The notes under the pieces were generated by a model. The model saw only the letters and a list, made by a program, of their open reading frames with translations, was not told where the DNA came from and ran no database searches. Below are positions 17,187 through 20,674 of a DNA stretch of 38,346 nucleotides, piece by piece. The stretch lies in the NCBI GenBank assembly GCA_041581895.1, contig JBFICQ010000002.1, forward strand, positions 1 to 38,346, read 5' to 3'. Origin of the DNA: Polyangiales bacterium (GTDB lineage Bacteria; Myxococcota_A; Polyangia; Polyangiales; Houyiibacteriaceae). Numbering within the stretch: the first letter of the stretch is position 1; the number at the start of each line of letters is the position of its first letter. Made by a program: the position numbers and the translations under genes.

Positions 17187-17960
17187 ATGACGGAGCTCCT
17201 GGAACTTCAAGGGAAGGTCGTCGTCGTCACTGGCGGCACGATGGGCGCTGGGAAGGGAATCGCCCTTCGCTTCCTCGAAATGGGCGCCCATGTGATCATC
17301 TGTGCACGGAACGAGCCCGCGACGCCGTTAACAGCCGAAGGTCGCGGGGCTCTCTTCATCGCGGCCAATGTGCGCAAGCTCGAAGACCTCGACCGGGTCA
17401 TCGAAGAGGTGATGCAGCGCTACGGGCGCCTCGATGTGCTCATCAACAACGCCGGCGGGTCACCTCCAGCCGACGCGGCAACGGCTTCGCCGCGGTTCTC
17501 AGCTGCAATCATTGAGCTCAACCTGATCGCGCCACTCAACTTCGCGCAGAAGGCAAATGCCATCATGCAGAAGCAAGACAGCGGGGGCTGCATCATCAAC
17601 ATCGGAAGTGTGAGCGGACTTCGTCCCTCCCCCGAAACCGCCGCTTATGGAGCGGCCAAGGCCGGCCTTCTCAACTTGACCACATCGCTCGCCGTGGAGT
17701 GGGCGCCCAAAGTTCGCGTCAACGCGATCGCCGCGGGCATGATCCTCACCGAGAAGGCAGAGCTACATTTCGGCAAGGGGGGAGTGCGCGAAGCGGTCGA
17801 GAAGACGGCACCGATGGGACGGATGGCGCTCCCGAAAGACGTCGCCGACGCGTGCCTGTTCCTCGCGTCGCCACTTGCGAGCTATATCACTGGCGCGAGC
17901 ATTCTTCTTCACGGCGGCGGCGAATGGCCGGCGTTTCTCCGAGCTTCCCAGGCAGAGTGA
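17187..17960 (+). CDS. Short-chain dehydrogenase/reductase (SDR)
   Basis: The gene starts at MTELLELQGKVVVVTGGTMGAGKGIAL and has NNAGGS and YGAAKAGLLNL (YxxxK). A GAGAAAGGA RBS lies upstream. The track ORF start at 17127 overlaps the divergent dioxygenase promoter region. Confidence 0.8.
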   Translation: MTELLELQGKVVVVTGGTMGAGKGIALRFLEMGAHVIICARNEPATPLTAEGRGALFIAANVRKLEDLDRVIEEVMQRYGRLDVLINNAGGSPPADAATASPRFSAAIIELNLIAPLNFAQKANAIMQKQDSGGCIINIGSVSGLRPSPETAAYGAAKAGLLNLTTSLAVEWAPKVRVNAIAAGMILTEKAELHFGKGGVREAVEKTAPMGRMALPKDVADACLFLASPLASYITGASILLHGGGEWPAFLRASQAE

Positions 17961-18040
17961 GCAGGATTGCCGGGGCCTTCGGCACCTTGGTTAGTTGCAG
18001 CTTGCGGAATCGGGCTGCAAGCGCCACCTTCGCAGACCAA

Positions 18041-18775
18041 ATGGAGTCTGACATTCAACCCTCTCTCGCGGTCGAAGGTGTCGAGGACCAAGCGCACGGG
18101 CTCGCGATCCCGGCTTGGACGTTCATGATCGCCTTCATCGTCGGCGGCACGTCCTTTCACATCTGGCTGCACCACACCGTCCGCGAAACATACAACGTGC
18201 ACCAGATTGGCCTGATCTTCTTTTTGATGGTCAATCTCTTGGTGAACTTCTGGGAGATCGGCCTCTTCGTTTGCAAAGACCAAATCCGCGACGAATACGA
18301 AGCCACCAAAGACGCATATCGAGGACGCGAAACCGAGCGCTTCAGTGAGATGTTCCGAAAACGCATTCCGGTTCTGAAGCTGCTCTCCTTTGGCCAATGG
18401 ACCGAGGTTTGGTCGAGTTACGCGCTCTTCGACCCCGGCTATGCGAGCCGTAGCTCGTTTGGGTTCAATATCGATTTCGGCAACGGCTGGTCGACGCCGA
18501 TCTTCGCGGGGCTTTTCGCTTTCGGCATGACCTTTGAGCTCATGCCCGCGCGCATCCTCGGCATCATCGGCGTGATCATGTTCTGGCAGATGTTCTACGG
18601 AACCATTGTGTACTTTTTTCAGTTCTTCAATGCCGGGCGACACAAAGGCCACTCACTTGGAACGCTGGTTTTGTTCATAGGGACTAGCAACGGCCTGTGG
18701 TTCGTCTTCCCGCTCTGGGGTCTTGCCCTCAGCATCCAGATGATTCTCAACGACTCCTACAGCCTCTTCTTCTGA
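18041..18775 (+). CDS. EXPERA-domain-like membrane protein (emopamil-binding protein / sterol delta8-delta7 isomerase-like)
   Basis: The 244-aa polytopic protein is collinear with remembered human EBP blocks. NFWEIGLFV aligns with [39 protein letters not shown] aligns with [56 protein letters not shown]...[11 protein letters not shown] aligns with [22 protein letters not shown]...NALWLVLPG. The match is divergent, with Asp where EBP has Glu in the CMET block. The start is at MESDIQ (18041), and the upstream part of the track ORF overlaps the SDR. Confidence 0.5.
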   Translation: [244 protein letters not shown]

Positions 18776-18789
18776 GGGCTGTCTGTCTC

Positions 18790-19599
18790 TCAGATCGGGC
18801 CGAAGAGCGCCGCAGCGAAGTCCAACAAGAAGAGCATGATGAGACCCGCAGCGCAGGCCGCCCCCGCCGTCATCGTCAAGCTCCAGTTGGCGCTTTGTTT
18901 CTCGTCGAGTTGATAGAAGATCGGAAAGCTTGCGATGAAGTAGAGCGAGTAGAAAAGCGAGCCGTAGGCCAGCATGCGGTCCACGTCTTTGTAATGAAAC
19001 TGAGTGGCGATCCACGGGTTTGCCATCGTCCGCGTTTCCATCCATGCCCAACAATAGGCGACCACGACGACGAATACCGGCCAGATCACGCTCCCAAATG
19101 GAAGCCCCGAGGTGCGAAGCCGGCGCAACACGACGACTGCTGTGGTGTGATAGGTGATGAAGTACGCCTGCGTCAGAAAGTACATCATGACCGGCACGCG
19201 TTGTTCCCCCGAGCCCACGAGTGTGGAATCGAGATTGAGCTCGATCATTGGGTAGTCGTAGACCATCCCGAGGATGTCGAAGAAGTACTCCGAGCCGAAA
19301 TAGTTCGCGGCAAGGCCGAAGATCGCAATGTAGAGATTGGCTTTGAACCAATACGTCTGGTACCAGGCTCTCCCGTGCGGTCTTTCGTCGCGAATCAAGG
19401 CTGGCACGACCACCAGCGGAAGCGCCACGGCCAACCCGATGATGAAAAAGCCCCATTCCCCGATGCGATCGGTGATCCCCAGAGCCATCACCAGGCCGAT
19501 CAGGGCCATCCAGATCGGCGAGTAGATCAGAAAGAACTTTTCGCCCCACGCTTTGCTCGCGTTTTCGGAGAACCAACGGGGCATCCTAAGCTCGGACAT
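18790..19599 (-). CDS. Cycloeucalenol cycloisomerase (plant CPI1)-like membrane protein
   Basis: The protein resembles remembered Arabidopsis CPI1 along its length. WFSENASKAWGEKFFLIYSPIWMAL aligns with LAANPSKRWGELFFLFYTPFWLTL. WYQTYWFKANLYIAIFGLAANYFGSEYFFDILG aligns with WKDRYWVKANLWIIVFSYVGNYFWTHYFFKVLG. YFLTQAYFITYHTTAVVVLRRLR aligns with FFLTHVCFLFYHVASNITLRRLR. YGSLFYSLYFIASFPIFYQLDEK aligns with VGCLFYAIYFIVSFPMFFRMDEK. The C-terminal LDFAAALFGPI aligns with LDLWRLFLGPI. The start is either ATG 19599 or ATG 19584. Confidence 0.8.
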   Translation of the reverse strand: MSELRMPRWFSENASKAWGEKFFLIYSPIWMALIGLVMALGITDRIGEWGFFIIGLAVALPLVVVPALIRDERPHGRAWYQTYWFKANLYIAIFGLAANYFGSEYFFDILGMVYDYPMIELNLDSTLVGSGEQRVPVMMYFLTQAYFITYHTTAVVVLRRLRTSGLPFGSVIWPVFVVVVAYCWAWMETRTMANPWIATQFHYKDVDRMLAYGSLFYSLYFIASFPIFYQLDEKQSANWSLTMTAGAACAAGLIMLFLLDFAAALFGPI

Positions 19600-19663
19600 C
19601 GATGGTCGGAAGCTAGAATAGGATTCTTTCTCTTTGCAACTTTGTTTTATGCTCCCTGCAAGC

Positions 19664-20674
19664 ATGCACGGACCCGCCCAAGGCCCTCGACCAAAGCTCC
19701 CGATGCCTTCCGGTTGGTTTCGCATCGCAACGAGCGAAGACGTTCACGCGGGGCACGTAGGTATCTTTCAGATCAACGGCCAAGAAGTCGTCGCTTTTCG
19801 CGAGGAGCAGGGTGCGGTGACCGTCGTCGACCCGATCTGTCCTCACATGGGCGCGCATCTCGGTTACGGAGGGCGCGTGGTCGACGGTGCCCTACGGTGT
19901 CCGTTTCACGGGCTGCGATTTGGCCCGGACGGAAAGTGCATCGGCACCGAGTATCCCGGCGATCCTGAGGTGGACCTTAGCCTCCGCACCTGGCCGGTCA
20001 TGGAGCAGCTTGGCTGCATCTTCGTCTATGCGGGCAACGGAGCCGCACCTACGTGGGAGCTTCCTGAGTACGACACCGCCGGGTGGAGCAAACCGATCAC
20101 CAAAGTGTTGGTTCTCAAGGGCCACATCCAGGACATCGCCGAGAACGCGGTCGACTTCGGTCATTTCGCCGCAGTCCATCAATACTCGGACCTGTCAGAT
20201 CCGACGTTGCAAATTGACGGTCCGCGTCTGCACTCAAAGTTTGGATCCACACGGGCAAATCCGTTCTTTCCCAAGGGTGAGATTCAATCGATCTTCGACA
20301 CCGATGTGCATGGCCTCGGTCTCTCGGTGACGGACCTACGGGTACCGAAGCTAGGCATTCACTACCGCGTTCTACTCACGGCGACCCAGCTCGACGCGGA
20401 GAACATGTCTTTTGGCATTGGCGTGAGCTCCGAGTATCCCCCGCCGTTCGTCCCCAAAGCGATGCGCAACCTGCGACTGCCTTGGCGGGCCGTAACTCAC
20501 GCGCAAATGCGCATCGTACATCGATATGTCATTCGCGATGTGCTGCAAGACAAGGAGATTTGGGAGCACAGGGTCCCGATAGAGAGCCCCGCCCTAATCC
20601 CAGGCGACGGCCCTATTGCGAAGTTCCGACGCTGGGTGAAGCAGTTCTATCCAAGAGACTGGGGAGCGCGCTGA
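19664..20674 (+). CDS. Rieske [2Fe-2S] non-heme-iron oxygenase, alpha-subunit-only type (KshA / Neverland / SdmA-like class)
   Basis: CPHMGAHL-(x17 between His and Cys)-CPFHGLRF is the Rieske motif. [13 protein letters not shown] is the mononuclear Fe ligand motif. The C-terminal [33 protein letters not shown] is typical of the steroid-acting KshA/Neverland clade. Start options are ATG 19649, 19664 and 19703. Confidence 0.8.
   Translation: [336 protein letters not shown]

Follow-up and report, generated by a model that had tools for sequence, protein, structure and literature searches.

Cycloeucalenol cycloisomerase (CPI) opens the 9β,19-cyclopropane ring of cycloartenol-derived sterols and so yields a Δ8 sterol. 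The Δ8 → Δ7 shift is the step of human EBP and plant HYD1 – 3β-hydroxysteroid Δ8,Δ7 isomerases – and in plants it comes after CPI, CYP51 and C-14 reduction. KshA, a Rieske protein, is the oxygenase of 3-ketosteroid 9α-hydroxylase. In bacteria, sterols are also acted upon by SdmA, a Rieske-type sterol C-4 methyl oxidase (PMC10202945), and cholesterol production is documented for two myxobacterial families, the Sandaracinaceae and the Polyangiaceae (PMC12004948). Phylogenomic work has treated myxobacterial CPI1, CYP51 and ERG25-27 as biosynthetic, often syntenic with the genes for oxidosqualene cyclase (OSC) and SQMO (PMC8237579).

The stretch of DNA analysed here (the window; 38,346 nucleotides) comes from an uncultured Polyangiales (Myxococcota) bacterium and holds four adjacent genes, which lie where a first-pass annotation of the letters had placed them. 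A classical short-chain dehydrogenase/reductase (SDR; 257 aa; 17187..17960, plus strand) is followed after 80 nt on the same strand by the gene for a 244-aa membrane protein (18041..18775), here called EBPL. On this converges a CPI-like gene (269 aa; 18790..19599, minus strand), the gap between the two stop codons being exactly the 14 nt originally reported (18776-18789), and divergent from the CPI-like gene is a gene for a Rieske oxygenase (19664..20674, plus strand; 336 aa from the ATG at 19664). Alternative starts for the latter are possible at 19634 and 19703, and the divergent spacing is ~65-100 nt depending on the start codon; NCBI annotates a 99%-identical Rieske gene (locus L009) as 336 aa. 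The adjacency of the four genes is confirmed and they belong to a sterol gene island, while the interpretation first placed upon them is, as a whole, partly supported. For the CPI-like, Rieske and SDR proteins similarities to known families are far above chance; the resemblance of EBPL to EBP is real but remote. The roles given below for all four are predictions from sequence, structure models and gene context.

Homology to CPI1 along the whole length of the minus-strand protein, C-terminal LFGPI included, had been proposed from the letters alone, and it is borne out at 36% identity and E ~1e-50 to Arabidopsis CPI1: E is 7e-50 for the full-length, collinear alignment to the A. thaliana protein (At5g50375; EC 5.5.1.9) and 8e-51 for residues 9-269 against that of A. 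lyrata, also at 36% identity. Fifty-six alignment columns are invariant across plant and bacterial sequences, and JGI labels the homologues 'cycloeucalenol cycloisomerase'. Unlike the plant enzyme, the bacterial proteins have 11 inserted residues (LDSTLVGSGEQ) and no plant C-terminal tail. Judged by these alignments, the gene at 18790-19599 matches plant cycloeucalenol cycloisomerase at the level of an orthologue. Such a gene is not new in myxobacteria, for which CPI1 has already been published, as part of sterol gene sets, along with how it relates to its eukaryotic counterpart (Hoshino & Gaucher 2021, PMC8237579). A further difference is that the locus in the window is without CYP51; CPI activity here is predicted from sequence.

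EBPL calls for remote comparison. The window protein has no sequence match in Pfam, NCBIfam or the PDB, no direct match to EBP even at E ≤ 10, and HMMER profiles of EBPL found nothing in the PDB at E ≤ 10. Its AF2 model (pLDDT 88.4, pTM 0.82), on the other hand, has five long helices in the order of EBP, and among 350,542 PDB chains searched with Foldseek the only ones above TM 0.5 were of human EBP (8w0r_A and 6oht_A; TM 0.52-0.60, probability 1.00); the remaining matches listed all fell below 0.4, and nearly all below 0.3. A profile of the EBPL family – an unannotated family of 364 clusters at 50% identity – aligned to human EBP by hhalign at E 1.5e-4 (probability 52%), and among 62 diverse members the commonest weak Pfam match was EXPERA (PF05241, the family of EBP and HYD1; 10 of 62), covering HMM positions 4-111 of 113 and placing the EXPERA-like core at roughly residues 119-235. 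The description of EBPL as EXPERA-like and collinear with EBP thus stands on fold and profile, and fails at the level of direct sequence match.

Might this resemblance be convergence, or chance among small helical-bundle membrane proteins, with EBPL unrelated to EXPERA? The empty HMMER search, the hhalign probability of about one half and the weakness of the Foldseek alignments (E 2.6e-3 and 0.11, RMSD ~6 Å, 14% identity) are what such a reading would predict, but we consider it quite improbable, given that three independent methods – Foldseek, hhalign and Pfam – lead to the same family and the same collinear region, that the EXPERA matches span nearly the whole HMM, and that both the W-x2-Y-x3-D-x2-Y signature and the N-x2-W of TM5 are conserved in the family. 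Moreover, the CPI-like model, which served as a control, being likewise an all-helical membrane protein (seven predicted long helices; pLDDT 81.6), matched no PDB fold above TM 0.3. In its modelled fold and its C-terminal half EBPL matches the EXPERA/EBP sterol isomerase family, and is shown by these comparisons to be a distant EXPERA/EBP-fold homologue.

The residues that align bear upon function. hhalign pairs W124/Y127/D131/Y134 of EBPL with W101/Y104/D108/Y111 of EBP – the loop motif that EBPL has in common with human EBP and plant HYD1 (6OHT, 8W0R) – and E72, D145, N217 and W220 with EBP E80, E122, N193 and W196; all of these are at least 90% conserved across the 62 members. The first-pass annotation had EBPL diverging at the catalytic acidic positions of EBP. 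This is not so: acidity is kept in kind at both (E80 as E72, E122 as D145), and the position lost is His76, which falls on V68 and has no His counterpart. Of the His/Glu/Trp set, therefore, the acidic and Trp members are retained and the histidine, which EBP catalysis requires (from mutagenesis and the 6OHT structure), is gone. EBPL differs further from EBP in a stretch from TM2 to the signature motif that is ~20 residues longer and in a 6-residue insertion (FGNGWS) after D145. As an orthologue of EBP it was rejected: identity is ~14%, matches lie below the Pfam threshold, His76 is replaced by Val, and some members occur in non-sterol contexts. Because of these differences in sequence, residues and context we regard EBPL either as a sister family of EBP or as a branch that has diverged very far.

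Gene context links EBPL to sterol genes, a further likeness to EBP and HYD1. Of 31 Polyangiales loci, 29 have EBPL no more than 5.5 kb from CPI, as against none of the 19 loci of other phyla, which shows that the gene belongs almost constantly to the CPI/CYP51 island of Polyangiales. The SDR proposed as its partner adjoins it in all eight type-A loci, and is probably co-transcribed with EBPL, upstream of it; a DapB-like NAD(P) oxidoreductase (15118..16200, minus strand; Pfam DAP_DH_C 1.8e-23) travels with EBPL in seven of the eight. The family is also found away from any sterol genes, in the Actinomycetes Haloechinothrix and Nocardia wallacei, where a TetR gene and a DapB-like oxidoreductase adjoin it; in Haloechinothrix a 42%-identical EBPL stands two genes from a 36%-identical homologue of the window's DapB-like protein. 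In addition, the SDR–EBPL pair is kept in two loci (L012 and L013) from which CPI, CYP51 and the Rieske gene have gone. The substrate of EBPL therefore need not be the product of CPI.

These same contexts, together with the missing equivalent of His76, lend some weight to the idea that EBPL has the EXPERA fold without being an isomerase: it could bind or sense sterols or lipids or act as a scaffold, as proposed for TMEM97 and TM6SF2, or be an enzyme of a non-sterol lipid. We doubt this, while granting it more room than any other alternative considered here, since two acidic residues, an Asn and a Trp occupy the equivalents of the EBP catalytic site in at least 90% of the 62 members, and the gene sits inside the CPI/CYP51 island in nearly all Polyangiales loci.

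Rather, we lean towards the view that the window shows one corner of a sterol-modifying island comprising CPI, an EBPL isomerase, SDR and DapB-like reductases and a Rieske hydroxylase. EBPL would bind its sterol in an EBP-like membrane cavity and catalyse an acid/carbocation-type double-bond shift, most likely Δ8 → Δ7, using the conserved E72 and D145 with N217 and W220 and doing without the histidine of EBP. The SDR and the DapB-like oxidoreductase would supply the accompanying keto-reduction or double-bond reduction, and the Rieske protein would hydroxylate the sterol nucleus or a methyl group. That the island acts on sterols, as first suggested from the four genes, gains from two sterol-type genes in their surroundings, a 3β-HSD/ERG26-like gene (3393-4415, minus strand; Pfam 3Beta_HSD 5e-60) and an ERG25-like FA_hydroxylase (4419-5093, minus strand; 1e-24). 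With an FNR-type reductase bearing a C-terminal plant-type 2Fe-2S domain (5121-6416, minus strand; FAD_binding_6, NAD_binding_1 and Fer2) these form a trio also found in relatives. The architecture of this reductase is KshB-like, a likeness to the KshA system, and its domains make it a possible electron donor to the Rieske protein.

The Rieske protein itself (Pfam Rieske 3e-17, KshA_C 2.5e-21) has KshA as its best PDB match (4qdc, 5.5e-25). Its CPH...CPFH and DFGHFAAVH motifs are intact, and it shares with KshA (4QDC, 2ZYL) the CxH/CxxH cluster ligands, the DxxHxxxxH iron site and, as had been recognised, the C-terminal block QD.EIW..P.L..DGP...RRW..QFY. It is of the alpha-only type, also as first described. 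By domains and motifs the gene is thus shown to encode an intact KshA-family mono-oxygenase. It differs from KshA in scoring 91 bits only, in being ~50-65 residues shorter (323-336 versus 386-394 aa), and in standing in a CPI/CYP51 island and not a kst/hsa catabolic cluster. The suggestion of an SdmA-type C-4 demethylase fares less well. SdmA (NF052579) is the best-scoring NCBIfam model, and both are Rieske oxygenases in a bacterial sterol context (PMC10202945), but the score is 51.6 bits against an equivalog cutoff of 600, with the N-terminal Rieske half alone aligned, and orthology was rejected. No SdmB orthologue adjoins the gene (the island 3β-HSD scores 93 on the SdmB model, against 600), and the island already holds an ERG25/ERG26-type pair.

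In relatives the usual genomic partner of CPI, matching plant pathway order, is CYP51: of 37 loci, 34 have a CYP51-like gene upstream of CPI, and the single such gene tested, that of L011, hits CYP51 in the PDB with E 1.6e-129. There CYP51, with TetR or ferredoxin, lies between CPI and the Rieske gene. The window – 38 kb of this genome – contains no CYP51/P450 gene or remnant, and L059 has the same CYP51-less arrangement. The four genes form so tight a knot because this lineage is without, at this locus, the CYP51 and TetR that separate the CPI and Rieske genes of relatives; their back-to-back order is a lineage-specific local rearrangement.

It had been asked whether bacteria use a Rieske enzyme where eukaryotes use a P450, and one could suppose that sterol 14α-demethylation passed from CYP51 to the Rieske oxygenase in the lineage of the window. 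The Rieske gene stands exactly where relatives have CYP51 and TetR, the CYP51-less order recurs, and at L011/L062, where CYP51 is kept, the Rieske orthologue has lost its whole 2Fe-2S motif through an in-frame deletion. Yet intact Rieske orthologues accompany CYP51 in eight loci (L017, L025, L032, L038, L042, L057, L060 and L063), CYP51 may lie elsewhere in a genome of which 38 kb is visible, and C-14 demethylation by a Rieske enzyme has no known precedent. A takeover is in our judgement highly improbable; the co-occurrence in eight loci indicates that the Rieske enzyme is an accessory and does not generally replace the P450.

Purpose is a separate matter. The island could process or degrade external sterols – cycloartenol- or lanosterol-type triterpenols from algae or plants – instead of serving de novo synthesis: CPI and CYP51 would rid the sterol of its cyclopropane ring and 14-methyl group, FA_hydroxylase, GMC, Aldh and 3β-HSD would remove C-4 methyls, and KshA-like, HsaC-like and hydrolase enzymes would attack the rings. 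Within 10 kb of CPI, neither the window nor any of 95 loci (80 of them CPI loci from a genome scan) has an oxidosqualene cyclase motif. An aldehyde dehydrogenase (11300-12952, plus strand; Pfam) and a GMC oxidoreductase (12913-14538, plus strand; Pfam) form a pair that accompanies CPI and CYP51 across phyla, with homologues near CPI in Polyangiales, Gammaproteobacteria and Zavarzinia loci. CPI–ferredoxin–CYP51 clusters occur, too, in gamma proteobacterium HdN1, Ketobacter and Zavarzinia, hydrocarbon degraders that are not known to make sterols. The KshA_C domain and KshA match of the Rieske protein point the same way, as does an extradiol ring-cleavage dioxygenase (16203..17150, minus strand, divergent from the SDR; Pfam BphC_D1 and Glyoxalase) that scores 235 bits on the HsaC model and in type-B loci adjoins a meta-cleavage-type hydrolase. 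Moreover, the CYP51 of sterol-degrading Mycobacteriales has been discussed as modifying exogenous lanosterol (PMC13277303). Against this, the dioxygenase falls below the cutoffs of both the HsaC and BphC models (297 bits on BphC), no KstD, HsaAB or side-chain β-oxidation genes were seen in the window, related families synthesise cholesterol (PMC12004948), and published phylogenomics reads the myxobacterial genes as biosynthetic (PMC8237579). On balance an island for external sterols seems to us rather unlikely.

Several island neighbours nonetheless resemble steroid-degradation enzymes (KshA-, HsaC- and KshB-like), which counts against the explanation we prefer, as do the missing CYP51 of the window and the lack of an OSC motif within 10 kb of CPI. 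The dioxygenase beside EBPL is kept in both island types. The SDR is a confident member of its class (Pfam adh_short_C2 5e-55; NCBIfam PRK07856, 370 bits with the cutoff at 255), with TGxxxGxG, NNAG and YxxxK motifs in its translation, and its PDB matches are generic: 17β-HSD14, 7α-HSDH and glucose dehydrogenase, all near 1e-35.

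The four-gene knot at 17187-20674 comprises an SDR, the EBP-like membrane protein EBPL, a CPI-like protein and a Rieske oxygenase. The element of interest is EBPL, which represents an EXPERA-like family that is divergent, lacks annotation and is linked to the sterol island of Polyangiales. ORF listing combined with inspection of start codons places the SDR gene (257 aa) at 17187-17960 on the plus strand and, 80 nt further along the same strand, the gene for EBPL, a 244-aa membrane protein, at 18041-18775. The EBPL stop codon lies 14 nt from that of the CPI-like gene (18790-19599, minus strand; a 269-aa membrane protein), and divergent from the latter runs the Rieske gene, which starts at 19634, 19664 or 19703 and ends at 20674 on the plus strand. 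These coordinates, spacings and orientations show that the first-pass annotation had the anatomy right, from ORFs and strands to the 14-nt gap. A scan of the region for consensus promoters and terminators returned nothing above chance level.

A critical issue is the identity of EBPL. As a single sequence it gave no useful match at E≤10 in Pfam, NCBIfam or PDB, and HMMER profiles built from 25 and 62 members of the family (also termed EBPL) found nothing in PDB. Close homologues number 266, all of them "hypothetical" proteins of Polyangiales, and an exhaustive profile search enlarged the family to 364 clusters at 50% identity. Three independent lines nevertheless indicate a link with EBP/EXPERA. 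The first is structure: an AlphaFold model from the 25-sequence alignment (pLDDT 88.4, pTM 0.82), compared with 350,542 PDB chains by Foldseek, matched 8w0r_A (TM 0.53/0.59) and 6oht_A (TM 0.52/0.60), both human EBP and both at probability 1.00. These were the sole matches with TM>0.5, all others listed falling below 0.4 and nearly all below 0.3; the model of the CPI-like protein – likewise an all-helical membrane protein, and thus a negative control – showed no such match. EBPL is therefore predicted to adopt the EBP-type helical-bundle membrane fold. The second line is profile alignment: hhalign of the 62-member profile against the single sequence of human EBP (checked to be identical to that of PDB 6OHT) gave E 1.5e-4 and a probability of 52% over 105-198 columns. 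The comparison became informative only with this diverse profile, the narrow 25-sequence profile yielding a 41-column match at a probability of 2%. The third line is the pattern of weak matches in Pfam, among which EXPERA (PF05241) is by far the commonest: it was found in 10 of the 62 members (best E 0.0029), covering HMM positions 4-111 of 113 and always the same C-terminal region of EBPL. These matches stay below threshold, none exceeding about 15 bits where the cutoff is 25.7, and the EBPL of the window has none even at E≤10.

The alignment with human EBP is collinear and gives counterparts for most of the catalytic residues. W101, Y104, D108 and Y111 of EBP correspond to W124, Y127, D131 and Y134 of EBPL, E122 to D145 (Asp for Glu), N193 to N217 and W196 to W220, while E80 falls on E72 in a low-confidence part of the alignment. 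Equivalents of the catalytic residues Glu80, Glu122, Asn193 and Trp196 are thus present. The catalytic His76 aligns with V68, in a helix that holds no conserved histidine; apart from V68, each of the aligned residues is conserved in at least 90% of the 62 members. The first-pass annotation had placed the divergence from EBP at the acidic catalytic positions, and the alignment reverses this: the acids are kept and the histidine is lost. The resemblance to EBP shows in the fold and, less securely, in profile comparison, and falls away in direct sequence searches. From structure, profile alignment and weak Pfam matches together we conclude that EBPL is distantly homologous to EXPERA-fold proteins, lying outside formal Pfam membership and devoid of the catalytic histidine of EBP.

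The neighbouring CPI-like protein has no model or entry in Pfam, NCBIfam or PDB, and its database homologues are 453 proteins of Polyangiales and other Myxococcota MAGs, many labelled "cycloeucalenol cycloisomerase" by JGI. Plant CPI1 was retrieved with an Arabidopsis CPI1 query, to which the returned proteins were 97-98% identical; only these retrieved proteins, named CPI1 in NCBI and UniRef, entered the comparisons. BLASTP identity was 36% both to A. thaliana CPI1 (P0260; E 7e-50) and to A. lyrata CPI1 (P0243; residues 9-269, E 8e-51), the Arabidopsis match spanning essentially the whole length and including the terminal ...LFGPI, which confirms the resemblance first noticed for this ORF. 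In an alignment of 24 plant and bacterial sequences 56 columns are invariant and a further 20 nearly so; the bacterial proteins differ from plant CPI1 in an 11-residue insertion and in lacking the C-terminal tail of the plant enzymes. Modelled with AlphaFold (pLDDT 81.6), the CPI-like protein has seven long helices and no structural relative among PDB structures. That myxobacteria carry CPI1 is already known and published: Hoshino & Gaucher (2021; PMC8237579), who traced CPI1, CYP51 and ERG24-27 to Myxococcota, listed CPI1 as one of eight sterol genes for which the eukaryotic versions nest inside the myxobacterial ones, and a 2026 preprint repeats this. Taken alone, the CPI and Rieske parts of the knot are unsurprising.

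The Rieske protein combines the Pfam Rieske and KshA_C domains (the latter, PF19298, at 77.2 bits where 23.3 are required; E 2.5e-21), with intact CxH...CxxH 2Fe-2S and DxxHxxxxH iron motifs, the second reading DFGHFAAVH. Its best PDB match is KshA (5.5e-25), and the alignment takes in the C-terminal QD.EIW..P.L..DGP..RRW..QFY block, so that the steroid-acting, KshA-type signature noticed earlier does align to KshA. Orthology with KshA proper, the 3-ketosteroid 9alpha-hydroxylase, was nonetheless rejected: the match to 4qdc is split into two stretches and scores only 91 bits, the protein falls some 50-65 residues short of KshA in length, and the gene lies outside a kst/hsa context. The sterol C-4 methyl oxidase SdmA (NF052579) is the best NCBIfam model, but at 51.6 bits against an equivalog cutoff of 600, over the Rieske half only (residues 28-193); on this score the proposal of an SdmA-type C-4 demethylase was abandoned. 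With KshA as best PDB match and SdmA so far below its cutoff, the protein is classed by sequence as a KshA-like oxygenase, neither KshA proper nor SdmA. Since the top matches in both libraries are steroid-acting enzymes, it does not, judged by those matches, group with aromatic-ring or betaine oxygenases. The reductase encoded at 5121-6416 contains FNR and plant-type 2Fe-2S (Fer2) domains, which we take to be the KshB architecture, and the Rieske enzyme may hydroxylate a sterol together with this reductase. The SDR is a generic classical one (Pfam adh_short_C2, 5e-55; motifs TGGTMGAG, NNAG and YGAAK in the translation), and both it and the Rieske protein are further members of familiar families.

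Comparison with other genomes sets the knot in context. Loci were gathered by homologue look-ups on long contigs and by a CPI-alignment scan, with one genome per GTDB species (186 loci found by the scan, 80 fetched), and 18 marker proteins were run against each of them by tblastn. Genes for CYP51 and a small ferredoxin nearly always precede CPI: CYP51 stands upstream of it at 34 of 37 Polyangiales-like loci and at 19 of the 23 in other phyla, and the P450 of one locus (L011) matches Methylococcus CYP51 at E 1.6e-129. Two island types can be distinguished. In type B (28 loci) ferredoxin-CYP51, CPI, a LipL-like esterase and an amine-oxidase-like flavoprotein run in one direction towards a convergent EBPL gene (233 aa), beyond which lie extradiol dioxygenase, hydrolase, GMC and Aldh genes. 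Type A (8 loci and the window) begins with a DapB-like oxidoreductase and an extradiol dioxygenase, followed by SDR and EBPL (244 aa) converging on CPI, CYP51 and TetR; past TetR come the Rieske gene and genes for a CAAX protease-like and a PDZ protein. The window contains no P450 motif or remnant anywhere, and no ferredoxin, LipL-like esterase, amine-oxidase-like flavoprotein or hydrolase genes. From the arrangement of the compared loci, the four-gene knot is a type-A island minus CYP51 and TetR.

The first-pass annotation had asked whether a Rieske enzyme serves bacteria in place of a P450. A Rieske orthologue occurs at 9 of the 37 loci and is intact alongside CYP51 in 8 of them; a general replacement of CYP51 was therefore rejected, and the Rieske enzyme counts as an accessory. 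Rieske stands directly beside CPI without CYP51 only in the window and at L008, L009 (the 99%-identical locus of MAG GCA_041598435.1), L010 and L059, the first three of which are the window's nearest relatives (CPI 91-99% identical). At L011 (13675-14553; equivalent to L062) the Rieske orthologue, about 52% identical, has lost about 44 residues in frame, among them the entire CxH...CxxH 2Fe-2S motif, with the iron-site motif spared; the locus keeps CYP51 and TetR. A second, independent CPI-Rieske adjacency is found in a distant Myxococcales MAG (L085; CPI 54% identical), where a different KshA-like Rieske gene (8991-9950, plus strand) lies directly upstream of CPI (10001-10780), with non-CYP51 P450s on the flanks. 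Its product is 32% identical to that of the window and equally far from SdmA (64 bits against 600).

CPI homologues 49-64% identical extend beyond Myxococcota to Gammaproteobacteria (HdN1, Ketobacter and Pseudomonadales MAGs), Zavarzinia (Alphaproteobacteria) and Chloroflexi; examples are gamma proteobacterium HdN1 (L082; FP929140.1, 1376959-1397747), Zavarzinia marina (L086) and two Chloroflexi MAGs (L075, L084). Outside the Chloroflexi loci they usually sit in a CPI-ferredoxin-CYP51 cluster. Several of the carriers are hydrocarbon degraders which, to our knowledge, are not known to make sterols; the literature reachable by search held nothing relevant on sterols in HdN1.

EBPL lies within 5.5 kb of CPI at 29 of 31 Polyangiales-like loci and at none of 19 from Gammaproteobacteria, Zavarzinia and Chloroflexi; it persists where CPI has been lost, and the family occurs also in Actinomycetes, there without sterol genes nearby. 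A DapB/DAP_DH_C-like gene (15118-16200, minus strand, in the window) accompanies it in 7 of 8 type-A Polyangiales islands. The actinomycete Haloechinothrix (L001) has the same two genes, DapB-like at 8366-9424 and EBPL at 10001-10720 with a TetR gene between them (36% and 42% identical, respectively, to the window proteins): a cross-phylum gene pair. Cluster look-ups of distant EBPL relatives returned almost exclusively metagenome proteins. Many of these (P0363, P0367, P0402, P0416, P0430 and P0438 among them) have low-complexity Ser/Arg-, Thr- or Asn-rich N-termini, and their contigs have sparse, fragmented gene calls, which suggests that many distant members come from microbial eukaryotes. 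The gene calls of one such contig, L014, are consistent with a eukaryote, short of proof.

From the homologies, predicted EBPL fold, conserved residues and gene linkage observed here we infer the following enzymatic steps. CPI would yield a delta-8 sterol by opening the cyclopropane ring; EBPL could then shift a nuclear double bond by EBP-like protonation and deprotonation, using E72 and D145 with N217 and W220; and the SDR or the DapB-like enzyme might carry out a linked reduction. We propose, tentatively and with more doubt than conviction, that EBPL is an unrecognised EXPERA branch – present in Polyangiales, some Actinomycetes and many eukaryote-looking metagenomic proteins – which acts in Polyangiales as a sterol C-8 (or related nuclear double-bond) isomerase through a version of the EBP mechanism independent of histidine. 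The debate on the origin of eukaryotic sterol synthesis centres on myxobacterial sterol genes, and EBP is said to have evolved within eukaryotes (PMC8237579). Were the proposal true, EBP-type isomerases would not be solely of eukaryotic origin, contrary to that current inference, and bacteria would have a counterpart to a further step of the eukaryote-like sterol pathway. In the literature reachable by search nothing relevant turned up on EXPERA or EBP from bacteria in general or from Myxococcota, nor any mention of EBPL. As an EBP-fold family nearly always found in the Polyangiales CPI/CYP51 island, EBPL provides a definite candidate, open to testing, for an EXPERA-type sterol enzyme of bacteria, and would show an EBP active site that naturally lacks the catalytic histidine. 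The comparative map, with its two island types, accessory KshA-like oxygenase and EBPL-linked DapB-like oxidoreductase, guides the choice of genes for co-expression.

That the island is sterol-directed is well supported. Whether it builds sterols or acts on external ones is a separate matter: a search for the OSC motif (DCTAE) within 10 kb of CPI found none, in the window as at all 95 fetched loci, and several island genes resemble steroid-catabolic types, both as expected were the substrates external. However, related myxobacterial families make cholesterol (PMC12004948) and the literature treats the island genes as biosynthetic (PMC8237579); we regard action on external sterols as the less probable reading.

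Further genes of the window include a 3beta-HSD (ERG26-like) and an FA_hydroxylase (ERG25-like) within 3393-5093, an aldehyde dehydrogenase and a GMC oxidoreductase within 11300-14538, a DUF1214 protein, a TetR regulator and an extradiol dioxygenase. Homologues of the Aldh, GMC, FA_hydroxylase and 3beta-HSD genes travel with CPI and CYP51 in Polyangiales and Proteobacteria (L076-L079, L082, L086, L087, L093 and L094), and this co-travel hints that the GMC/Aldh pair may be responsible for oxidising alcohol to acid during C-4 demethylation. A tandem pair of SDR genes and a sulfotransferase gene (Sulfotransfer_3, 4e-43) at 8317-11303 adjoin the DUF1214 gene within the island and are found again in L011; this gene content would fit the making of a sulfated sterol or steroid. 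Between the GMC and DapB-like genes, and present also in L009, is a predicted 173-aa lipoprotein (14544-15065, minus strand) with a CxxCH motif and a sub-threshold match to cytochrome P460 (23.9 bits against 27). The window opens with two long overlapping ORFs on opposite strands (85-1710, plus strand; 196-1506, minus strand), neither with a Pfam match. At its far end, and unrelated to the sterol island, is a nitrous-oxide reductase module (33172-37389, minus strand) comprising a NosZ-like protein (nos_propeller and cupredoxin), NosD, an ABC ATPase and an ABC-2 permease.
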